From positions 1 to 64,000 of IMG/VR virus record IMGVR_UViG_3300036861_000805: a DNA stretch of 64,000 nucleotides; one strand, 5' to 3'. Positions 1-59,366 of this stretch are shown one piece after another; the stretch's first letter is position 1, and each line of letters starts with the position of its first letter. The position numbers and the translations under genes are program-made. Source of the DNA: a virus. The notes under the pieces are model-generated. The model saw nothing but the letters and a program-made list of their open reading frames with translations. It ran no database searches and was not told the origin of the DNA.

Positions 1-50
1 GCGCTCATCGGCGGCATGTCCACGACTTCGCCCTTTTTGCTCGCGCTCAT
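1..50 (-). CDS. N-terminus of a gene running off the window (MSASKKGEVVDMPPMSA...); candidate array-associated protein
   Basis: ATG at 50-48 overlaps the TGA of the 47..166 ORF (ATGA); open to window edge. Confidence 0.45.
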   Translation of the reverse strand, partial: MSASKKGEVVDMPPMS

Positions 51-166
51 CCCGAACACCTTTGTCGGTGTAGACAGATGAGAACAGGCTTCCCGCTCTC
101 TGCCTGCGAGACGGTTACGCCTTTCAGCACTTGCAGAATGTTGTCGGGAATCTCGGTGGTAGTCAT
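47..166 (-). CDS. 39-aa hypothetical protein directly downstream of array 1
   Basis: RBS GAAAGGAG then ATG; MTTTEIPDNILQVLKGVTVSQAESGKPVLICLHRQRCSG; translated by hand. Confidence 0.55.
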   Translation of the reverse strand: MTTTEIPDNILQVLKGVTVSQAESGKPVLICLHRQRCSG

Positions 167-176
167 GGGGCTCCTT

Positions 177-872
177 TCGATCGCTCGTACTTCACGGTTG
201 GCTCAACGGCGACGGCTCGCTCTTCCACGACGGTTGGCTCCAGATCCACGGCTCGCTCGATACTGACGGTGTTCTCAACGGCGACGGCTCGCTCCGTAGA
301 TACGGATGTCTCCCGTAGTACGGCTCGCTCTAGTTCCACGGGTGGCGCCAAGTGGGCGGCTCGCTTCCACGTCTCGGTTTGCTCAGCATCGACGGCTCGC
401 TCGGTCCTGACGGGTTGACTCTCCTTCCCCGCCTCGCTTCGCTGCTTCGGGTGACGCCAGCTTCTCGGCCTCGCTCATTCATCCCGGGCATCTCTCTGCA
501 CGCGGCTCGCTCCCAACCTTCGGTTTGCTCAACATCGACGGCTCGCTCCCAGTTCTCGGATGGCTCTGGGAGGACGGCTCGCTCGGGCGCTACGGGTGAC
601 GCGCTGATCGCGGCTCGCTCATGTACCTCGGGTGACTCCCGAAGTACGGCTCGCTCGTCATCGCCGGGTATCTCCAGCGCGTCGGCTCGCTCGCGCCGGA
701 CGGTTGTCACGCTCGATACGGCTCGCTCTTCGGAAGAGGGTGACTCGCGCAGCGCGGCTCGCTCACTCCAGACGGTTGTCACGTTTGCGACGGCTCGCTC
801 AGGGTTGATGGTGGTCTCGCTGGCTTCGACTCGCTCACCCGCCACGGGCGTCTCAATTCTCACGACTAGCGG
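177..872 (-). ncRNA. TIGR-like dual-repeat guide RNA array 1, 19 units of 36 nt
   Basis: + strand block CGGCTCGCTC (some variant) at 213,249,285,321,357,393,430,466,503,539,575,611,647,683,719,755,791,827 with degenerate ends at 177 and 863; second block CGGDTGDCTC-like midway; 8-nt variable segments between. Confidence 0.88.
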
Positions 873-1039
873 CGCCGCTCGACTGCATCTTGGAGCGCGC
901 CCAGCGCGTTCCCCAGATCGTTCGAGATAGGTTCCGGTTCGGAGGCGAGCATGGCTTCCAGAACGTCGCAGACGAGATGCTTCACTTTCCACCAGCGGTA
1001 GAGCTGGAAGCGGCGCAGGCGAAGCACCCAGTCGTTCAT
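866..1039 (-). CDS. hypothetical protein between arrays (MNDWVLRLRR...)
   Basis: ATG at 1039 overlaps stop of 1036..1317. Confidence 0.6.
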   Translation of the reverse strand: MNDWVLRLRRFQLYRWWKVKHLVCDVLEAMLASEPEPISNDLGNALGALQDAVERRR

Positions 1040-1317
1040 TCGGCGGAATCTGCGTAGTCGGCGGAGATGCCTGGCGCGGATGCAGGCTCGGCCTCCCGGA
1101 TCAGCGCCTGCTGGGAAACCATCACTGTGAAGCTGCGAGTACAAATATCCGCGCTCTCGAGAAGTACGCGCTCTTCGACGCGCACTGTGCGCGAAGACAT
1201 GAAGGTGCCTTCCGCCGGAAGCGTGTCGACGGCCGCGGAGAAGGCCTGGTCGCGGTCATCGAAGCGCTCGCCGGAGTCCTTTCCCGGCAAGATGACTTCC
1301 CAGTACGTGCGTCTCAT
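1036..1317 (-). CDS. hypothetical protein between arrays
   Basis: 93-aa ORF, RBS-like GAAAGGAAAAG upstream. Confidence 0.7.
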   Translation of the reverse strand: MRRTYWEVILPGKDSGERFDDRDQAFSAAVDTLPAEGTFMSSRTVRVEERVLLESADICTRSFTVMVSQQALIREAEPASAPGISADYADSAE

Positions 1318-2426
1318 CGCTTTTCCTTTCGCTTCGGGTCCGGGCGCACGGAGCGCTCAGGGGAGGGAATGTGGATGCGCATATGCTTGCCCTTCGGCAG
1401 TGGATGCACTTTCCCGCAGAGCTTGCATATCGTCCCCGCCGGCGCAGTGGCAAGGCAAGTGCTGCGGCGAGTCTTGGTTCGCTCCAGCGATACGGATGGC
1501 TCAGCAGGCTCGGCTCGCTCACCGAGTGCGGGTTTCTCTCCGTCTTCGGCTCGCTCGTGCGCGACGGGTGGCTCGGCGTAGGTGGCTCGCTCTTCCATGG
1601 CGGGTGGCTCTCGACCCGCGGCTTGCTCGCTTCGGACGGGTGCCTCCAGTCGCACGGCTCGCTCATTCGCGACGGATGGCTCGGCACCGGCGGCTCGCTC
1701 GCCAGGAGTGGGTGACTCTCCTTTATCGGCTCGCTCCCGTCGGCCAGGTGACTTCGCTGGTACGGCTCGCTCTCTCGTGTCGGATGCCTCACCATCGACG
1801 GCTCGCTCACTTGTCGCGGATGACTCAGCACAGACGGCTCGCTTCCGCTGGACGGGTGACTCCGCACTGACGGCTTGCTCCATAGATACGGGTGACTCCC
1901 GACGTCCGGCTCGCTCGCATGTCGCGGGTGACTCCTTTCCTTCGGCGCGCTCACAGCCTGCGGGTGACTCACTATCAGCGGCTCGCTCCTCACAGTCGGA
2001 TGACTCCTCTACTACGGCTCGCTCTGGACTCACGGATTGCTCTCGCATCCCGGCTCGCTCGGCGACCCCGGGTGATTTCTCAGCGGCGGCTTGCTCCTTA
2101 GTCTCGGACGACTCAACTTCGACGGCTCGCTCGTGCTGGAGGGATGGCTCCTGCTTCTCAACTCGCTCTTCGGCTTCGGATGCCTCGCGAAAAACGGCTC
2201 GCTCTGCTTCAACGGGTGGCTTCCTCGAGGTGGCTCGCTTGCAGGCGACGGATGACTCTCTCGGCTCGGCTCGCTCCCAATGGACGGATGACTCCGCGTC
2301 GTCGGCTTGGCTGGCCCTAGCCCCGCCCGGGGAGGCAGGGGCTAGGCCAGCTTTCTCGGGCGCGGGTGCGGCAGGTGGAGTGGGCTCCGCGCCCGATTCT
2401 TCGAGCAGATCGTCGAATTCGTTCAC
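1314..2426 (-). CDS. possible 370-aa ORF reading through array 2 (E-R-A 12-aa repeats, C-terminal CxxCxxxH)
   Basis: GTG at 2426 overlaps upstream TGA; its TGA overlaps ATG at 1317; no internal stop; may be partly a shadow of the RNA array. Confidence 0.4.
   Translation of the reverse strand: MNEFDDLLEESGAEPTPPAAPAPEKAGLAPASPGGARASQADDAESSVHWERAEPRESSVACKRATSRKPPVEAERAVFREASEAEERVEKQEPSLQHERAVEVESSETKEQAAAEKSPGVAERAGMREQSVSPERAVVEESSDCEERAADSESPAGCERAEGKESPATCERAGRRESPVSMEQAVSAESPVQRKRAVCAESSATSERAVDGEASDTRERAVPAKSPGRRERADKGESPTPGERAAGAEPSVANERAVRLEAPVRSEQAAGREPPAMEERATYAEPPVAHERAEDGEKPALGERAEPAEPSVSLERTKTRRSTCLATAPAGTICKLCGKVHPLPKGKHMRIHIPSPERSVRPDPKRKEKR
1475..2312 (-). ncRNA. TIGR-like dual-repeat guide RNA array 2, 23 units of exactly 36 nt
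   Basis: Edge block every 36 nt from 1475 to 2303 with no indel; sense consensus GAGCGAGCCG-N8-GAGTCA(C/T)CCG-N8. Confidence 0.9.
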
Positions 2427-2662
2427 CTGATCTGCCGCAGCTGGAACTTTCCATGCTGGCGCCTGAGCCATCTGATGTGTTCCAGCAGCTCCTTGACTTC
2501 CCGGTTGCGCTGTTCGGCTTCGCCGAGCATGCAGTTGAGCTTGTGCCAGCGCCAGGGTTTGTGGCGCAGCTTTTTCATCACGGGAATGGCTTGCTCGTTC
2601 TCGTGTAGAAGGGCTTGGCAATGTCTGAGCAGTCTGAGGCGTGCCTCTACGAGCTCATCCAC
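2423..2662 (-). CDS. hypothetical protein
   Basis: 79-aa ORF overlapping the RHH gene end. Confidence 0.6.
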   Translation of the reverse strand: MDELVEARLRLLRHCQALLHENEQAIPVMKKLRHKPWRWHKLNCMLGEAEQRNREVKELLEHIRWLRRQHGKFQLRQIR

Positions 2663-2840
2663 GATCGGTCTCGGCCTTGCGCACCCAGGCGTCGATCATG
2701 CTGTTCAGGATTTCCTGCATCGTGCGCCCGTCGTAGGCGAGCGCGACCTTGAGCCGGCGGTGCAGGGAGGCGGGCATGCGGAAGGTGACCTGCTGCAGGG
2801 GCTCGGTAGCGGGGGATTCAGATACCTCGGTATCGGGCAT
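2655..2840 (-). CDS. ribbon-helix-helix DNA-binding protein (ParG/CopG-like)
   Basis: QQVTFRMPASLHRRLKVALAYDGRTMQEILNSMIDAWV fits the RHH pattern; start taken at ATG 2840. Confidence 0.75.
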   Translation of the reverse strand: MPDTEVSESPATEPLQQVTFRMPASLHRRLKVALAYDGRTMQEILNSMIDAWVRKAETDRG

Positions 2841-2900
2841 TCGAGATACCGTAGCAGTTGGGTATTGAGATTTCAAGGTATCTGGGTATGTAGGGTGTTT
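2821..2900. promoter_or_regulatory. 8-bp-phased GGTAT/GATAC repeats, probable RHH operator
   Basis: GGTAT at 2829,2861,2877,2885 and GATACC at 2821,2845, all in one 8-bp phase. Confidence 0.5.
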
Positions 2901-3090
2901 GGTGGAAATATGGTGTGTGTAGAGCGGGAGTTCGCGCTCCCCCTTCAAGCGGCCGGGCTCATCGGGAGCAGCGGAGATCGAGACTGCCCAAGGCAGCATC
3001 GGGGCGCGCCGACGGCGCAGTCCCGGGAGTCGTTATCAGACTGATAACTCCAGGCCTGGAGCGGGCTGGGGAGGATTCCCTCCTAGAGAC

Positions 3091-3119
3091 TTGACAGATG
3101 ATAGGTGAGGCCTCATACT
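3091..3119 (+). promoter_or_regulatory. sigma70-type early promoter
   Basis: TTGACA-17 nt-CATACT. Confidence 0.7.
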
Positions 3120-3276
3120 AGGCAGGCAGCACGGAGCGAGCCGACTACCTTCGGGGACGAGTCCGAGGGATCTTCCCTCACTAGGAACCACCGAGGCGGG
3201 CAGACTCCAGGAACCTTGAAAACTCCAGTTCGCGAGGCTCCCACTAGGGGACTACTCCCCTGGAAACGGAGTCACA

Positions 3277-4071
3277 ATGAGCAAGACTGACGTCCTGACT
3301 GCCGAGCAGGAGACTGCCGAGCAGTCAGCACAGGCCGAGACCGAGCAGAACGAGGCACTCGTCCCGCTCGAACGGGCGATCACCTCCGACATGGAGCGGA
3401 TCGACCGTGCCGAGTCCATGGTCGGACGCCTCTTCACCCGCGTCGGCATTCGTGTAGACAAGGGTGCATTCCGCGTCTCTGACTACGGGCGCGATTGGCG
3501 AGTCTGGGCACGGCCGCTCGTGGGCCGTTCCGACTCGATCCTGTACAAGGTCCGGCAGGCGGGAGCGATCGCCCGAGTCCTCGGATTCGAGGAGACCGCG
3601 AAGCCTGAGGACCTGCCCGGCTACCTGACCCTCGTCCCCTTCTACGCGGTCATCAAGACCGCAAAGACGGACAAGGAGCGAGGGAAGGCGGAGGACAAGA
3701 TCCGCCGCGCGTGGGCGTCGCTCACGAGTGGGGGAACCTTCCCGACACAGGAGCAGGCGCAGGCGAAGGCAGACGCCATCGTCGGGCGGATCCGCCAGGC
3801 ACAGGAGAACGGTGCCGATACCGACCCCGACTCGGAGGAGACTCCGCAGTCTGGTGCGGAGGCTCAGGAGAAGGACTCCCCCGCGGAGATGGTCCGTTTG
3901 GATCCGGCCGCGGTCGAGGCCACTCGAAAGCATCTCGTCCCGTTCTTCAGGCAATGGCACAACGAGTACGGCGTGGAGGAGACCGCTGCCAAGGCGATCA
4001 TGTCTGCCACGCTGCGGCTCGTCGGGTCCGACGGACCCGGCCGGGACCTGATCGAAGCGGCGATCGGCTAA
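3277..4071 (+). CDS. hypothetical protein, first gene of the rightward arm
   Basis: 264-aa ORF, GGAG RBS. Confidence 0.8.
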   Translation: MSKTDVLTAEQETAEQSAQAETEQNEALVPLERAITSDMERIDRAESMVGRLFTRVGIRVDKGAFRVSDYGRDWRVWARPLVGRSDSILYKVRQAGAIARVLGFEETAKPEDLPGYLTLVPFYAVIKTAKTDKERGKAEDKIRRAWASLTSGGTFPTQEQAQAKADAIVGRIRQAQENGADTDPDSEETPQSGAEAQEKDSPAEMVRLDPAAVEATRKHLVPFFRQWHNEYGVEETAAKAIMSATLRLVGSDGPGRDLIEAAIG

Positions 4072-6647: not shown

Positions 6648-7013
6648 ATGGATCTGTACTGCCCACACTGCGGCGAGCCCTGGGATTTCGACTCGCTGCA
6701 TGACGAGGCGCAAGCCGAGTACGGCGTGCCGTACTACATCGAGGACGATCCCTACGGATCGCTCAAGGCTCGCGTCAAGAACACGGCCTACGACTCGGAC
6801 GCCTACGACAAGGTGTTCCAGCGGGTGAGGAAGGAGTTCCAGCGCATCGGCTGCGGGGTGTTCGCGTCGTTCGGTGCGAAGTGCTCGACGCCCTCTACGG
6901 AAGTCGATCGCACGTTCGGGCTCACGCGCCAGGAGGCCGCAGGCGCGTTGTACGACTTGCTCGGCGACGACATGGACGGCGCAGCCGCCATGCTCGACGA
7001 CATGGGGTACTGA
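6648..7013 (+). CDS. hypothetical protein with CxxC
   Basis: RBS; MDLYCPHCGEPWD. Confidence 0.8.
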   Translation: MDLYCPHCGEPWDFDSLHDEAQAEYGVPYYIEDDPYGSLKARVKNTAYDSDAYDKVFQRVRKEFQRIGCGVFASFGAKCSTPSTEVDRTFGLTRQEAAGALYDLLGDDMDGAAAMLDDMGY

Positions 7014-7098
7014 CCGCTGCGCGTCACTCATTCACTTTCTGAATGAGTGCGCGCGGAGTCGTCATCCCGGCGCTCCACGACAGCGAAAGGAGTCCGCT

Positions 7099-7251
7099 AT
7101 GTCTACCACGGCTTCCGATCTTCCCGGCAAGACCGGGCCCGAGATCGCCGCGCTCGTCAAGGGCGGGGAGATCTCGCAGAAGGATGCGGAGAAGTTCGTC
7201 GGCGATCGCGCGGTACGCAAGCTCCGCTCGGCGCTCGACAAGCTGGCATAG
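7099..7251 (+). CDS. hypothetical protein
   Basis: GAAAGGAG RBS, ATG 7099. Confidence 0.65.
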   Translation: MSTTASDLPGKTGPEIAALVKGGEISQKDAEKFVGDRAVRKLRSALDKLA

Positions 7252-7255
7252 TCCC

Positions 7256-7298
7256 AAAAAGCGGTCCCGGACCGGCAATTGTGCGGTCCGGGACCGCT
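7256..7298 (-). terminator. strong hairpin with U-tract on minus strand
   Basis: AAAAAGCGGTCCCGGACCG...CGGTCCGGGACCGCT. Confidence 0.5.
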
Positions 7299-21735: not shown

Positions 21736-22257
21736 ATGAGCGACGGAGCAAACCTGGGCATCACCGCAGGACGAGCCCTCGGGACGATCCTCGGAGACGA
21801 CCCGCAGCCCTCAGACGACGGACGCGCAACGCCAGAAGAGGTCCGGGCTCGCTTGGAGGCTGCACCTCTCTTCGAGGGTCCCGCTCCCTGGGAAGGCGTC
21901 GAGCCTGGTGGTGACGATCCCGAGGGCCGCGACGAGGCTTACAGCGCAGCCTGCGACTCGATCGGGCACGCGTTCCTCATCCTGATCGAGGAGGACCCAT
22001 CCCTACTCGAGCCGCATCCCTATCCAAAGACGTACCCAGACGGAAGCCCTATGCCCGACTGGACGAAGGGAAAGAACCGTGACCAAGACAGCGTGGTCTG
22101 GGATGCGATGAAGGAGCGCTGGCCACATGCGAACGGCTGGCTCGGTGGAGCAAGCGGTTTCCAGGTCGGGTTCGCACTCAACGCTGCCCTCTATGCCTCC
22201 GGCCACAAGCCTGTGCCCAATCCGGCGATCGTGGAAGTGGAGGTCCCGAATGGCTGA
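21736..22257 (+). CDS. hypothetical protein
   Basis: 173-aa ORF in operon. Confidence 0.75.
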   Translation: MSDGANLGITAGRALGTILGDDPQPSDDGRATPEEVRARLEAAPLFEGPAPWEGVEPGGDDPEGRDEAYSAACDSIGHAFLILIEEDPSLLEPHPYPKTYPDGSPMPDWTKGKNRDQDSVVWDAMKERWPHANGWLGGASGFQVGFALNAALYASGHKPVPNPAIVEVEVPNG

Positions 22258-23461
22258 GGAAACCGACACCGATGTCATCGACGCCGAGGTCGTCGAGGAA
22301 GTGAGAAACCTTCCGGCCGTAAGGGCGTCCGAGGCGATCATCACTCGCGCCGAGCTCACCGTCGACGAAGTCGTCGCGCAGAAGGACAAGATCGAGGAGG
22401 TAATGAGGCGCGTCATGAAGCGCGACGTCCATTACGGCGTCATTCCGGGGGTGAACAAGCCGAGCCTGCTCAAGCCTGGCGCCGAGGCGATCAACGTGGC
22501 GTTGCGACTGGCGGCGCATTACGACTCCGAGAAGATCTGGCACGAAGACGGGCACCTCACCGTCGTCGCCAAGTGCGAGCTGCGCCACATTCCCACGGAT
22601 CTCGTCGTCGGCACCGGCGAGGGCCTATGCACGACGAAGGAATCCCGCTACGCGTTTCGCAAGGGCACGCGCCTGTGTCCGAACTGCGGCGAGCCACAGA
22701 TCAAGCGCTCGAAATTCAAGCCCAAGCGGGGCGATTACGACGGCGCGGGCCCGGACGATCCTCCTGGCTGGTACTGCTGGAAGAAGCAGGGCGGGTGTGG
22801 CATGAACTTCGCTCACGACGACGAGCGCATCATCTCGCAGTCCGAGGAGAAGATCCCGAATCCCGATCTAGCGGACACCTACAACACCGTGCTCAAGATG
22901 GCCGACAAGCGCGCACTGATCGCCGCGGATCTGAATGCCACCGCGGCTTCGGACATCTTCACCCAGGACGTCGAGGATGCTCCCGCCAGCGGGAGTGACA
23001 CCCCCGAAGAAGTCGCCAAGGACGAAGCCGTGACTGAAGAGAGGGCATTCGATCCCGGCAAGGATTTGCTCGAAAACGCGATCCAGGGTTCAGGAGAAGA
23101 GCAAGTCGCGGCCGTCCAGGAGGCCCTGCGAAACCTGAATGAGCGGATCGACTGGAGAGCGCTGATCGGGCAGGTGACGAAGCAGCACTTCAACAAGGCA
23201 TGGTCCAAGCTGACCAAGGCCGAGAAGACCGAGTGGTGGATCCGAGTTCGCAACGCGGCCGCAAAGCTCGAAGAGATCTCGCCTCCAGATCTCGGAGCCT
23301 CGCCCGAGTACATCCAGGATGCGTTCGCGTTCGCGTTCAATAGCCTCGCGGTGGAGATCGTCACTCTGGAACCGCCAGAGCCGGAAGAAGCCATCGAAGG
23401 CGTGTTGTCAGAGGAAGACGTAGAGAGACTGGCCGAAGAAGCCAGGGACACGGAATTCTGA
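22250..23461 (+). CDS. putative recombination / single-strand annealing protein
   Basis: HYGVIPGVNKPSLLKPGAE...NTVLKMADKRA...ASDIFTQDVED; function inferred. Confidence 0.6.
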   Translation: MAEETDTDVIDAEVVEEVRNLPAVRASEAIITRAELTVDEVVAQKDKIEEVMRRVMKRDVHYGVIPGVNKPSLLKPGAEAINVALRLAAHYDSEKIWHEDGHLTVVAKCELRHIPTDLVVGTGEGLCTTKESRYAFRKGTRLCPNCGEPQIKRSKFKPKRGDYDGAGPDDPPGWYCWKKQGGCGMNFAHDDERIISQSEEKIPNPDLADTYNTVLKMADKRALIAADLNATAASDIFTQDVEDAPASGSDTPEEVAKDEAVTEERAFDPGKDLLENAIQGSGEEQVAAVQEALRNLNERIDWRALIGQVTKQHFNKAWSKLTKAEKTEWWIRVRNAAAKLEEISPPDLGASPEYIQDAFAFAFNSLAVEIVTLEPPEPEEAIEGVLSEEDVERLAEEARDTEF

Positions 23462-23614: not shown

Positions 23615-24472
23615 ATGCGTGACCGGATGGTGTATCGGGATCGCATCTGCTTCGCATCGAAAGCGACACTCGCGCAAGCCGCTGGCTGCTCGACGCGCTC
23701 GGTGCAACGGGCTTGGCGCGAACTCGAGCTCTCTGGCCGCTGGGAATGTGTCAAATCCCTACCTTCTGGAAAAGCCCCCAAGACCAGGGTGTGGAGAGCC
23801 GTGTCCGAGGAGACCACCGGAATCGTCGAGCGGGCCGTGGTAACCGAGACTACCGGAGCTGTCGAGCGAGCCGCGAGATCCGAGAACACCGGAGCGTACG
23901 AGCGTTATTTTGTCTCCCGACGTACTTCGTACAGAAAACCTCAAACCCCTCGGCCTTCTGATCTCAGGATCAGCGCTAGCGAAGGACCACGGCCGAGGCG
24001 CGCGAGCGCGCCGACCATCCGCTGCGGTAGGAGGAGAAGACTCGTGGAACGACACCCAGAAAAACTCTCCGAAGGGGTGGTGCGGCGGAATGGCGAGGTA
24101 ACTCCCTGGAATGCTGGAGACGCCGTAGCTGCCACGGTGGACTTCTGCCGCACACGCGGCATACCCCTTGCTCCCTCGATCCGAGCGCGACTGGGGAAGG
24201 CAGCGAAGGCGCTGCTCGAATCAGACTTCCCTCCGAACGTCGTCGTCGCTTCCTGTGTCGTTGCGATCAGGACTGGCTGGTTCGGATCTGTGGAGACGAT
24301 CGCGCAGGAAATGGCTGTAGCTCAGGCGGGGGAGCGGATGACGCGGCAGGCCTATGTTCAGGCGATGCACGAGACATCGAGGGAGATGGAACATTCAGAG
24401 AGCGAAGTGTGGAAAACGCTACGTGAGGAAACGCAAAGACGAGCAGAGAAATCGAAAGGAGCCGAAGCATGA
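23615..24472 (+). CDS. phage replication initiator-like HTH protein
   Basis: CFASKATLAQAAGCSTRSVQRAWRELE; upstream of loader-like gene. Confidence 0.65.
   Translation: MRDRMVYRDRICFASKATLAQAAGCSTRSVQRAWRELELSGRWECVKSLPSGKAPKTRVWRAVSEETTGIVERAVVTETTGAVERAARSENTGAYERYFVSRRTSYRKPQTPRPSDLRISASEGPRPRRASAPTIRCGRRRRLVERHPEKLSEGVVRRNGEVTPWNAGDAVAATVDFCRTRGIPLAPSIRARLGKAAKALLESDFPPNVVVASCVVAIRTGWFGSVETIAQEMAVAQAGERMTRQAYVQAMHETSREMEHSESEVWKTLREETQRRAEKSKGAEA
23792..23904 (+). repeat. three-unit TIGR-like mini-array inside the initiator gene
   Basis: TGGAGAGCCG-N8-GAGACCACCG-N8-GAGCGGGCCG-N8-GAGACTACCG-N8-GAGCGAGCCG-N8-GAGAACACCG-N8-GAGCG. Confidence 0.75.
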
Positions 24473-38000: not shown

Positions 38001-38684
38001 CTACTTCGACTTGCAGGGTGGCGGCTTCCCGTTCGTACAGGGCTTCGGCGAGGGTGGGTTGGGCGGCTCCGGTGTCCCCGGAGGGCCCGGGTTTCCCGGC
38101 GGCCCCGGCGGCCCGGGTGTCCCCGGCGGCCCCTGACCCTCGGCCCCCGGCGGGCCCTGTGGTCCCGCTGGTCCTGTCGGCCCGGCCGGTCCTGCGGCGC
38201 CCGCTGGCCCCTGTACCCCCCTGCAGATCATCGGGTGCGCCAGGCAGAAAGTGCGAATGGCGACCGCGAGCTCGCGTTCTGTTGGAGCGCGTCCTACCGC
38301 ACCGGTCGTACCCATGCGCCCTCGGCAGGGATCGCTGGCGCTGTTGCAGAAGACCGTGATGGCGCGTACTAGCTGCGCCCGCGTCGGATCGGGCCCGCGT
38401 GCTCCTTGCGGACCTGCCGGCCCGCGCGCCCCGACTTCCCCCGGCTTCACTTTCTTGGCGGCAAAGCGGCGCTCGAGCGCGTCGATACAGGCTTTCTCCC
38501 TCAGTCCTGCGCACACGCCTGTCCGAATGATCCGCTCGGTCGTCTGTACGCGCCGCTCCGTCTGCCACTGCTTATACGCACTCGCCGCCTGGGCGGTGGC
38601 TACGAGAACGAACAGCGCGACAATGACGATGCCTAGGGCATTGCGCGCTCGCATCTCTCCCTGCTCGAACTCAGGTGCGCTCAT
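38001..38684 (-). CDS. membrane-anchored collagen-like protein
   Basis: TM helix plus GPx repeats. Confidence 0.75.
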
Positions 38685-45641: not shown

Positions 45642-47261
45642 TCAGCTCCTTTGCACCGTAAGCGAAACCGTAACGCGGGTAATGGTCGTCACCGAATCGA
45701 CATTGAAGCCGAGAATGTCGCCGGCGGTGATGCTCGTAGTCCAGCCGGAGAGAGTCGTGTCCTGTGATTTCGTCGCCGAGGAGATGGTGGGTGGCGTCGC
45801 TGAGGTAATCGAGTCCGGGTCCGTTGGAGGATAGTTAGCGTAAGTGTCTTTCCAGATATCGATGACGATGCTCCCACTCTGGTCAGCGAACAGCCGCGCA
45901 GCGGTAATCGTGCAGTTGAAGGGCACTTCCAGATATCCCTTCTGGCCCGTCGTAATCACTACCCCGCCGCCGTCGATGACGAACTCGATGGCCAGAACCG
46001 TTCCGCCAGGGCCTGTCGCGCCAGTAGCTCCGTTCGCTCCAGTCGCTCCCTGTGCCCCGGTCGCTCCAGCGCTTCCGGCCGTACCGGTGGCGCCGGTAGC
46101 TCCCGGCACTCCGGGAGCGAAGGCGACGACGGTGTCGCCGAGCGCAGTCGAGAGCGCGATACCCGAATCGTCGATGTAGGTGACGTGGATGCGGCGGTAG
46201 CCGGAGACAGTGTCGATGGCGTCGATGCGGTAGACGACCCAGCGCGTCGGGTCCGTCTCGCTGAGGATCTTCAGATAGCCCGGGACGGTCGCAAAGAGGT
46301 CGAGCCACGCGGTAACGTCGCTGCCCCACGTGTCGAGCAGGTCTATATACAGCTCCGTGACTGCGGAATAGGTCGCGCTGTTGAAGCGCAGGTTCCCGGA
46401 ACCGGGATCCGCGTCAGTCGTGGAGGAGTCGTCGAAGTTGAACTCGAAGGCGTCTGAACCAAGCGCGCCCTGCGCGCCGGTCGCTCCGGTGGCCCCGCCT
46501 GGCGAGCCAGTCGCCCCTGTCGCGCCAGAATCGCCGTCCGAGCCGTCAATGCCCGCCAAGCCAGTCGCTCCAGTTGCCCCGTCAGGAGGGCCTGCTGGCC
46601 CCGTAGCACCCGTGGCACCCGCTCCGGTCGCTCCGGTTGCGCCTGTGGCTCCCGTGGCTCCTGCGACGCCCGTAGGCCCCGTAGCACCGCCTGGCGAGCC
46701 CGCCGCTCCGGTAGCACCTGTCGCTCCGATGCCGGTCGCGCCAGTGAAACCGCGCACGCCAGTTGCGCCGGTAGCGCCACTTGCACCCGTGTAGCCGCGA
46801 GGCCCGGCGCTTCCCGCCGGGCCTGCCGGGCCCGTTGCACCCGCACTGCCCGAGGCGGGCCAGTAGATGCGCACCTCCCCGTCGTCGTAGTCGATCGTGA
46901 CCCGGCCAACCTGGAACTCAGACGTTGCCGGATCCCAGACGTCAACGAGGAAGGAGACGTTGTGTGGAGGTCGGAAGGTGGGTTCGACTCCCACGACGTC
47001 GGGCAGGATGCAAGCAACTGTTCCCGAGACTCCGGGGATAAGTGTGCCCTTGAACTCGAGCGAGTTGTCCGCATGCAGCCGGTACTGAAAATCTCCGAGG
47101 GAGAGCTCGGGATGCGTGTCGGAGGGCTGCGTCCACGTTCCGAGCAGCGTGGGCGTATTCCAGCGACCGGCGAGCGGCCGGCGCTCCTGTCTCGTTACTC
47201 GCTGATCGACGTATCGCTGACGGCGTTCCGGGTCGTTCTCGTCGTAGACCGGGCGACTCAT
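45642..47261 (-). CDS. collagen-like tail fibre
   Basis: GAT/GPx triplet tracts. Confidence 0.8.
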
Positions 47262-57515: not shown

Positions 57516-59366
57516 TTACGTCCTCGTGTAGTTGATGACCACGCCGATCAGCTTGGCATCGACCGCGAGGTTGTCGTTCGCCACGTCACGCCGGATTCGG
57601 ATCACCACAAGTTCGCCCGCGGCCGCACCAGTGAGTGTGACCGCGGGTGTAGCGTCCGACTTCTGCGCCTGAAGAGCTGTCGCCGTGTGAGCATCGGAGA
57701 TCACCTGTGCCGTGCCAGGAGCCGCATCGATTGTTTCCGAGTCACCGTAAGAGCGCCCAGCAATCTCCCACTGCACGTTGTTGGTCGAGACGCCAGTCGC
57801 GGTCCACCAGAATTCGGCCGTGACCGTGCCGCCATCCCAGTCCGAGGGCATCGCGAACGTCGCCCACGCGATCTCCTGCGTCGTCGTGTCGAAGTCGAGC
57901 GTGTAGTAGTTGAGGACGTTCGTGACCTCGACGTTCTTGACGAGCTGCGGACCGTTTGTCGTTGCCGGAATGAGACCCTGTGCGCTCAGATAGATGACGC
58001 CACTCGCCTTCGGGCCAGTTGCTCCCTGTGCCCCGGTCGCTCCCGTTGCCCCGGCAGAACCCGTTGCCCCGGTGGCACCCTGCGCACCGGCTGTCCCCGT
58101 GGCACCCGTCGCCCCATCGAGACCGTCCAAACCATCGAAGCCCGTTCCCCCCTGCGGACCAGTAGCGCCCGTCGCCCCCTCTACCCCTGTTGCCCCTGCT
58201 GCTCCTGTGGCTCCTTGAGTGCCTGTAGCCCCGGTAGCTCCATCCAGGCCGTCCAGACCGTCGGATCCGGTAGCTCCTGCGGAGCCGGTGGGACCAGTCG
58301 CACCCTGGATACCGGTCGCCCCCTGGGGGCCCGAAGCTCCAGTCGCACCATCAGCACCCGTGGCCCCGGTGCTGCCCTGAGTTCCGGTAGCCCCTTGGGT
58401 TCCCGTTGCTCCGGTAGCACCTTGGATTCCGGTAGCACCTGTCGACCCCTGAGTGCCCATCGCACCTGTACTACCTGTCTCTCCTTGCGCACCGGCTATC
58501 CCCGTCGCGCCAGTAGCTCCATCCGGTCCCTCAAGGCCATCCATACCCGTAGCCCCTGTTGCTCCAGCACTACCCGCAGTGCCGGTAGCTCCGGTTGCGC
58601 CCTGCGTGCCCACGATTCCCGTCGCCCCCGTCGCTCCATCGACCCCTGCGCTTCCTGTAGCGCCGGTCGCCCCCTGGGTCCCCGTGGCTCCGGTCGAACC
58701 CGTACCCGTTGATCCTTGCGCACCAGTAGCTCCCGTGCTTCCCTGGATTCCCGTCGGGCCAGTCGCACCCTGCGGCCCCGTAGCTCCCGTGAATCCGTCG
58801 AGACCATCAAGCCCGTCGAGGCCTGTGGCGCCTTGCAGGCCTGTCGCACCTGTTGCTCCCGTCGTTCCCTGAGTACCCGTTGCACCCGTTTCTCCCGCGC
58901 CAGTAGCACCGGTGTTTCCGGCCGCTCCCTGCACACCCGTGGCACCAGTGGCTCCTGCTGTTCCTGCCGTACCCGTCGCGCCGGTAGATCCCTGCGTCCC
59001 CGAGCCTGTAGCACCTGTAGCACCCGTCGCCCCCGTCTCTCCATCGGCACCATCCAGACCGCCGAGACCAGTCGCACCTGTTTCGCCAGCTCCCGTCGCT
59101 CCCGTGATTCCGGTCGCGCCAGTTGCCCCCGCAGTACCGGTTGCGCCAGTAGAGCCAGAACCGGTTCCTCCTGTCGCTCCCGTTGCACCATTAGCCCCGG
59201 TAGCACCCTGGGACCCGGTTGCTCCGGTATTCCCGCCAGCGGGAGGATCGATATAGACGTGCGTCAGACCGTCGCCAGCAACTTGCAGGATCTTGCCCGC
59301 GGCCTGGGCCGAATTGTCGACATCGAACAGAGCTTGCAGGAAGCGAATGACTTGAATCGCTGCCAT
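57516..59366 (-). CDS. long collagen-like head/neck fibre
   Basis: about 400 aa of G-X-Y dominated by GAT. Confidence 0.85.

Follow-up and report, generated by a model that had tools for sequence, protein, structure and literature searches.

Does the tandem repeat at positions 177-872 of this viral DNA encode a protein or a set of guide RNAs, and what could guides do in a genome that lacks their effector? The DNA comes from the IMG/VR record IMGVR_UViG_3300036861_000805, and the window is the whole stretch analysed here (positions 1 to 64,000 of that record). A preliminary reading of the letters alone, referred to below as the sequence-only reading, had described the repeat as an array whose frame breaks argue for RNA function. 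We propose that this element, array 1, is a dual-repeat TIGR array carried by a soil phage without a tas gene, and we give this explanation as a whole a probability of about 0.8. The first description of TIGR-Tas systems dates from 2025. Because published surveys take tas genes as their starting point, arrays without tas are invisible to them. The terms "orphan" and "standalone" array are absent from the text, supplements aside, of PMC12045711 and of bioRxiv 10.64898/2026.09.09.750476, and a literature search returned nothing relevant.

Repeat architecture

The element in question is organized as follows (nt, nucleotides):

177-872, minus strand: array 1, 19 units, each in the order edge (10 nt), spacer A (8 nt), loop (10 nt), spacer B (8 nt)

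The half-period is 18 nt and comprises a conserved 10-nt block followed by 8 variable bases, with edge and loop blocks in alternation. The edge consensus is GAGCGAGCCG, present in 14 exact copies, while the loop, GAGnnAnCCG, is more varied. In both blocks the most informative columns are positions 1-3 (GAG) and 8-10 (CCG). Seventeen units are 36 nt long and two are 37 nt. Both terminal edges are truncated, the first (872-863) on the 5' side and the last (186-177, GAGCGA+TCGA) on the 3' side. The inner tetramer of the edge, CGAG, can pair through its terminal C and G, whereas most inner tetramers of the loops (TCAC, CCAT, CCAC) cannot; pairing of the inner bases is the rule by which TIGRFinder tells edge from loop (bioRxiv 10.64898/2026.09.09.750476).

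Two further arrays lie in the window:

1475-2312, minus strand: array 2, 23 units (46 half-units) in strict 18-nt phase, with no insertion or deletion
23792-23904, plus strand: array 3, 3 units, in frame within an HTH_36 replication-initiator gene (23615-24472)

Exact copies of the edge number 31 in the 64-kb window, compared to 1.16 expected, and none of 100 shuffles reached 31; arrays 1 and 2 have 14 each, and the other 3 lie elsewhere. Two phased half-units in succession, with at most one mismatch, were found 66 times, compared to 0.05 expected. Chance is excluded as the source of the repeat pattern of array 1. The minus-strand parse and the shuffle test thus bear out the earlier description of a 19-unit array with alternating edges and loops, and the greater loop diversity that had been claimed for array 1 is also seen (13 distinct loops among the 17 parsed, compared to 14 among 23 in array 2). 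The estimate of about 42 potential guides agrees with the unit count of the two large arrays, to which the three units at 23792-23904 are to be added. Perfect edges account for 14 of 23 in array 2 and 14 of 18 in array 1, an upkeep equal to that of arrays linked to a tas gene.

As described in the text of Faure et al. (PMC12045711), dual-repeat TIGR arrays consist of two alternating repeats of 8-12 nt with short spacers of fixed length (8-10 nt), and give rise to 36-nt tigRNAs. Both repeats start with a box D-like and end with a box C-like motif; the edges at the array ends are truncated, and a typical array closes with a 3'-truncated edge followed by a terminator. Array 1 shows the alternating repeats, the short fixed spacers, the shared start and end motifs and the pairing edge; a tas gene, adjoining the array or in the same genome, was not found. 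The TIGR-TasA arrays of that account have the same alternating 10-nt repeats, 36-nt unit and truncated end edges, and are likewise phage-borne. Its TasR arrays share UG...CCA as start and end motifs, in contrast to GAG...CCG here, and the box D and box C identity of our motifs is by analogy. The SpTIGR array of Salicola phage CGphi29 also has 8+8 variable nt (16 nt) in a 36-nt tigRNA, a likeness of geometry; its effector, an HNH-fused TasH, is encoded beside the array, unlike here (PMC12045711). With 23 and 19 units, arrays 2 and 1 are larger than the "most often 5 to 15" units given in the same text.

A family of Tas-linked arrays

Related viral loci were sought with the pattern edge-N8-GAGNNANCCG-N8-edge, which matched 50 further viral loci, sharing edge and geometry with array 1, on 49 contigs. 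At one locus, L049, the array continues in frame into a C-terminal domain that weakly matches Pfam Transposase_20. The tas family was found through this fusion: tblastn with the C-terminal domain produced hits beside the arrays in most loci. A hidden Markov model (HMM) built from 37 neighbouring open reading frames (ORFs) matched 40 of the 50 loci at E<1e-40, with the gene adjoining the array. Five of the remaining ten loci have a TasA-like gene elsewhere in the record, and the last five are fragments (6-44% complete). A 20-member profile, drawn from the 39 ORFs found, matched PDB 9MTY (E 1.8e-31), TasH chains (2.7e-20) and the IS621 transposase (8e-9); 9MTY is the model of the TasR ribonucleoprotein (Faure et al., PMC12045711). 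Pfam Transposase_20 matches 18 of the 20 profile members. The family proteins have 250-290 amino acids (aa) and no nuclease domain and, therefore, are TasA-like. Their genes are co-directional with the GAG...CCG strand, and the common layout is [array]-[tas]-[array]. Clustering of the neighbouring genes (BLAST E 1e-8, 50% cover) brought out only the array frames and missed tas.

The edge of array 1 is identical to that of arrays whose records carry TasA-like genes on 44 of the 49 other viral contigs. Because edge and geometry match those of Tas-linked arrays, and the gene neighbouring the latter matches TasR and TasH, arrays 1 and 2 are, as judged from sequence, dual-repeat TIGR arrays of a TasA-linked family. 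The closest loop types, GAGBCAYCCG, occur among the viral contigs only at L037 and L049, both with tas. The pattern also matched 9 metagenome pieces, of which 5 have Tas and 2 duplicate contigs already counted.

The L049 fusion deserves a description of its own. At L049:11238-12698 (plus strand), about 15 array units are joined to the N-terminus of the TasA-like domain in a 487-codon frame, with guide units lying within tas. The phage that carries it (G015) is unrelated to the one studied here. Among prokaryote genomes, 97 loci (L051-L147) contain GAGCGAGCCG, most of them simply as part of perfect tandem repeats of 18 or 9 bp in Actinomycetes and Myxococcota. The "spacers" of these repeats are identical, and they resemble variable-number tandem repeats, not TIGR arrays; Tas lies near only 8 of the 97 loci, which give no clue to the host.

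Two extra bases in array 1

The sequence-only reading placed single-base insertions at two sites, and both are found there:

466-476, minus strand: 11-nt edge GAGCGAGGCCG with one extra G, making the first 37-nt unit (parse, contigs of runs X1 and X2)
411-421, minus strand: 11-nt loop GAGTCAACCCG with one extra base, making the second 37-nt unit (parse, contig of run X1 only)

Array 1 has two 37-nt units because one edge and one loop each hold one extra base. With the extra bases placed in the repeats, all 38 variable segments are 8 nt long, and under this parse the constant segment length that had been noted holds in every unit; an alternative parse with a 9-nt spacer may also describe the long units.

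Logan contigs were compared with window positions 100-2500 as independent assemblies. For run X1, which is probably the source sample, a 21,946-nt contig (depth 18) agrees with the window throughout 125-2500, showing neither a difference nor a gap. Low-depth pieces come from run X2, a soil metagenome from another study; one of them, a 157-nt contig (depth 2.8), is identical to the window over 448-604. A second sample therefore also has the insertion at 476-466, while 421-411 lies outside the X2 coverage. The objection that the indels are assembly errors fails as far as the check could be run, since the re-assembly from X1 keeps both bases and X2 the first only. Both extra bases are real, and assembly error is unlikely as far as this can be checked.

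An 11-nt edge of the 476-466 kind is also found in Tas-linked arrays, and loops like that at 421-411 occur at L029 and L037. Half-units of 19 nt beside an intact tas are of both kinds, with either a 9-nt spacer or an 11-nt repeat such as GAGCGAAGCCG or GAGAACACCCG. Thus, 37-nt units and the frame breaks they cause are normal for this array family.

Reading frames and selection on the array

Five features define the frames that run through the two large arrays and the genes between and after them:

861-863, minus strand: GTG in the upstream E-R-A register, 2 nt past the TAG (868-866) of the 57-aa gene
330-332, minus strand: TAG closing the frame carried through from the GTG at 863, outside the local E-R-A register
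163-168, minus strand: ATGA overlap of the TGA (165-163) of the downstream E-R-A register with the ATG (168-166) of the next small gene
1314-2426, minus strand: open frame around array 2, 370 codons from the GTG at 2426, its start overlapping the upstream stop as GTGA and its stop overlapping the downstream start as ATGA
866-1317, minus strand: two small coupled genes between the arrays, of 93 aa (1317-1036) and 57 aa (1039-866)

The order of the chain is array-2 frame, 93-aa gene, 57-aa gene, array-1 frame, 39-aa gene and 68-aa gene, and most junctions are 4-nt overlaps. The E-R-A frame reads GAG-CGA-GCC; its copy in array 1 opens at GTG 863-861 and is intact up to the first insertion. The TAG that the sequence-only reading assigned to this frame is indeed present and ends the frame carried through the two insertions, but it does not lie in the local E-R-A register, which reads ..GAA CTA GAG CGA.. 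around 332-330. The three local registers of array 1 (863-471, 469-413 and 411-163) are each free of stops, and the TGA of the last overlaps the next ATG. Two single bases aside, array 1 is therefore built like a coupled gene. Compared to the TIGR-TasA systems, the arrays here have neither tas nor terminator, take the place of a "gene" in a chain of coupled ORFs and avoid stops in one register.

These observations could mean that array 1 is a frame-shifted paralogue, as a pseudogene or a frameshift-dependent gene, of a repeat-protein gene whose dodecapeptides E-R-A-x-x-x-E-S/P-P-x-x-x are functional and whose TIGR appearance is ancestral. The intact array-2 frame with its GTGA overlap at the start and ATGA overlap at the stop fits such a gene, and so does array 1, with its GTG 2 nt past the upstream stop, its ATGA end and three stop-free registers that two bases alone keep apart. 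The avoidance of stops (P about 0.009, see below) points the same way, as does the similar Cys-rich tail that follows an array here and at L005, and TIGR units in frame inside genes have been published (Xu et al., bioRxiv 10.64898/2026.09.09.750476). The codon pattern is opposed to this explanation. At position 6 of the block, where the wobble base of codon 2 falls, A is found in 44 of 46 half-units of array 2 and 29 of 33 of array 1, while the first two bases of the same codon vary (CG, TC, CC, GC, CA, AC and others); hence it is the wobble base that is fixed and the residue that is variable, and the codons CGA, GCC and GAG are fixed. The spacers lack the third-position GC bias of the genome, with 0.60 at E-R-A third positions compared to 0.71-0.79 in flanking genes. 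The array-2 product belongs to no Pfam or PHROGs family, and both frame breaks are real, one of them also in the second sample. A test for a repeat protein accordingly fails for array 1 on its two +1 insertions, the TAG at 332-330 and the absence of the genome's codon bias, with array 2 alone staying open; a test on residue conservation fails as well. We regard a repeat protein as unlikely.

The family at large speaks to the same question. Spacings between exact anchors, counted over the viral loci together with this phage and a few near-identical contigs, total 1085; modulo 18 they are 0 in 978 cases, +1 in 63, -1 in 10, +2 in 7 and +/-3 in 3, and +1 steps make up 63 of the 107 out-of-phase spacings. 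After de-duplication, an E-R-A stop falls in the spacer codons of 96 of 1706 half-units (5.6%), and 69 half-units have a stop in codon 2 of the repeat, for example in GAGTGAACCG loops. Among family arrays of at least 20 half-units, 33 of 36 are not open frames, owing to a stop or a frame-breaking step, and 3 are open. Selection at the RNA level rather than the protein level is supported by these sequence comparisons, because +1 steps are common and 33 of the 36 long arrays are not open. The earlier claim that selection acts on nucleotide geometry and not on a reading frame is supported by the dominance of +1 indels, the broken frames and the fixed wobble A, with the caveat of stop avoidance and coupling in this phage.

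That caveat suggests a second constraint: ribosomes would have to pass through the arrays to reach the coupled genes, and array 1 would since have lost this openness. Both large arrays have probably been translated as well, array 1 now being broken in frame, and the expectation of no translation that went with the sequence-only reading is a risky prediction, at least for array 2. A guide array may thus thread through a translated, coupled frame, and a caution follows, as gene callers will annotate such arrays as repeat proteins. For array 1, no canonical slippery site for programmed -1 frameshifting was seen by eye in 476-403, in an inspection that included no formal test. A plus-strand frame encoding a G-S/W-L hexapeptide was considered and rejected, as the common loop gives an in-frame TGA.

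Absence of tas from the phage genome

The phage record is 86,757 bp long and has a 127-bp identical overlap at its ends (window 1-127, genome 86631-86757), with a CheckV completeness of 100%. The gene chain continues across the terminal junction, as in a closed circle or a circularly permuted genome. Searches of the whole genome gave 0 hits with the TasA-like profile A1 and 0 with Pfam Transposase_20. The 37-sequence tas HMM reached a best E of only 6.9 in all six frames of the genome, and the best probability from hhalign of profile A1 against the 153 ORFs of at least 180 aa was 1.5%. The same profile or HMM finds tas in the records of 45 of the 50 other loci. All 13 of the other records that are at least 90% complete carry tas (among the 30 whose completeness was seen). 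As judged by these profile searches, the complete genome has no tas homologue. Pfam Nop also gave 0 hits in the whole genome, with a model that is insensitive, having missed tas in the 20 searched records (of the 50 loci) that carry it.

One of the 13 records, G023 (the record of L009, 100% complete), contains at C1:8499-9290 a tas match with one internal TAA. This tas may be broken, and it could represent an intermediate toward a Tas-less state.

Since no tas is present in the genome, the guides must use an outside protein, act as decoys or be leftovers. Given the identity of the array, trans-acting guides or a decoy come near to even odds without reaching them; an inert leftover is a serious possibility at lower odds, and some other role is doubtful.

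Under the leftover option, an ancestral array-tas-array locus had its tas replaced by two small genes, with the arrays kept only for ribosome passage to the coupled genes. The usual layout is [array]-[tas]-[array] on one strand; here, the 93-aa and 57-aa genes occupy the position of tas, in a gap of 600 nt between the arrays, and match no Tas, Pfam or PHROGs family. Array 1 has the more varied loops, two irregular units and a broken frame, as might be expected of a remnant, and spacer targets were not found in the phage's own genome or in other loci. This is countered by edges and phasing that are kept as in Tas-linked arrays, with no indel in the 46 half-units of array 2, and by the large load that 45 units represent for a densely packed phage. 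The identical sequence in two soil samples also speaks against decay, weakly, as the samples may be close in time. On balance, an inert remnant appears improbable, yet it is the strongest of the alternatives.

A possible role in trans

We envisage the following sequence of events. Array 1 would be transcribed on the minus strand within a chain of small early genes, and the early transcript would carry 42 two-spacer modules. The RNA would be cut into two-spacer guides of about 36 nt only if a Tas of the same family came from outside, made by the host, by a resident prophage or by another phage infecting the same cell. The array would then either arm the foreign Tas with the phage's own spacers or titrate it as a decoy. 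Both arrays would also have stayed open to ribosomes, allowing translation of the coupled downstream genes, and the frame of array 1 would later have been broken by two 1-base insertions that left the repeat geometry unharmed. In its most specific form, a Tas-less phage with 45 early-operon TIGR units would exploit or disable a foreign Tas, through parasitic guides or an RNA sponge ("anti-TIGR"), and its DNA would double as a translated spacer gene; we put this forward tentatively, as an idea less likely to be right than wrong.

A mobile element that carries only the RNA half of a system, and uses or disturbs an effector encoded elsewhere, is familiar from Cas-less mini-CRISPR arrays of viruses and from RNA anti-CRISPRs. 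To our knowledge, such a role has been shown for no TIGR array, and the effector of that system is Cas, not Tas.

Xu et al. (bioRxiv 10.64898/2026.09.09.750476) describe TasA and dead TasR as repressors guided by RNA. The text of Xu et al. leaves open an outside source of guides for Tas proteins without an array, and the Tas-less array described here is the mirror image of these arrayless Tas. TIGR units in frame within coding sequence are also described there, in disordered linkers, with tas itself as the host gene; in contrast, the in-frame units here lie in an ORF of their own and in a replication-initiator gene, in a genome without tas. What is unusual in the present case is the combination of a complete Tas-less phage with frame-friendly, coupled dual-repeat arrays. 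That a complete phage keeps two large arrays in good order but has no effector suggests that guides and effectors can spread independently of each other, and the arrayless Tas would be the other half of this picture. The finding makes a trans-acting (arming) versus a decoy (sponging) role of guide arrays directly testable.

Several observations weigh against this explanation. First, the frames are gene-like: the 370-codon frame of array 2 is intact and is coupled to its neighbours at either end, the registers of array 1 are stop-free from GTG to ATGA, and the two large arrays together have 0 E-R-A stops in 81 half-units, compared to 5.6% per half-unit in the family (P about 0.009). Second, no terminator-like site was found on the minus strand of positions 1-3400, and a ribosome-binding site and ATG directly follow array 1. 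Third, 41 units were searched as 16-mers in both two-strand arrangements and in two control arrangements, and exact targets numbered 0 in the phage's own genome and 0 in 1.28 Mb (both strands) of the other loci. Fourth, two complete distant relatives of the phage, G031 and G032, have neither arrays nor tas, which bears on the supply of Tas in trans, itself a supposition. The insensitivity of the Pfam Nop model weakens that one negative search. Finally, the transcript of array 1, its processing to tigRNAs of about 36 nt and their binding by Tas are putative, and "guides" is a statement about architecture that implies a putative function; no RNA run is listed among those that contain the stretch.

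A scan for sigma-70 promoters on the minus strand found nothing. The history of tas loss is not reconstructable from G031 and G032, as their early region is not conserved.

Array 3 and neighbouring genes

Array 3 lies directly past the HTH_36 domain (Pfam, PHROGs) of the initiator. It begins with a 5'-cut edge and ends with a 3'-cut edge, and an AT-richer stretch follows. This setting raises the question of whether the repeats act as DNA, as an array of binding sites (iterons or centromere-like) for the initiator or for a nearby ribbon-helix-helix (RHH) protein. The position of array 3, in frame past the initiator HTH and ahead of AT-richer DNA, recalls lambda-type origins with their iterons, which sit at such a place, and the second gene upstream of array 2 encodes an Arc/ParG-like RHH protein. 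The odds for array 3 as iterons are low because the same repeat accompanies Tas genes in unrelated phages, among unrelated neighbours. No other gene family is common to more than 5 loci, by a weak test, as the clustering also missed the conserved tas. Further, no more than 10 bp in each 18 are fixed, a period of 18 bp does not keep helical phase, and relatives of the initiator C-terminal domain in G031 and G032 lack the array-3 units. We consider binding sites for a protein very improbable, and a guide array of the TasA-linked family remains our preferred explanation.

The RHH gene has no relative among the viral contigs searched, and the flanking proteins of the phage have no relatives in the other array loci. 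At L005 (oriented 6800-7291), the array is flanked by an RHH-like N-terminus on one side and a Cys-rich tail, C-x4-PAG-x2-C-x2-C, on the other. In this phage, array 2 is followed by a very similar tail (window 1314-1474, minus strand), and among 51 sequences only L005 and this phage have it.

Spacer matches and other repeats

With at most one mismatch, the 16-mers had 0 targets in the other loci plus G031 and G032. In the window, positions 22759-22774 (minus strand) match the reverse complement of spacer A joined to spacer B of the array-2 unit at 2168 with one mismatch. The site lies inside an ORF (22127-23461) just upstream of the initiator gene; shuffled controls gave 0-0.2 such matches and about 0.08 were expected. 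This match is probably noise and is not counted as significant. Eight of 82 spacers are identical to one elsewhere, compared to about 2 expected under uniform composition, an excess too weak to interpret.

Three other repeats in the window (38062-38207, 46015-46073 and 58024-58080) have a 9-nt period and encode collagen-type (Gly-X-Y-like) sequence within long ORFs on the minus strand of the structural region. The products of these ORFs are probably tail-fibre proteins.

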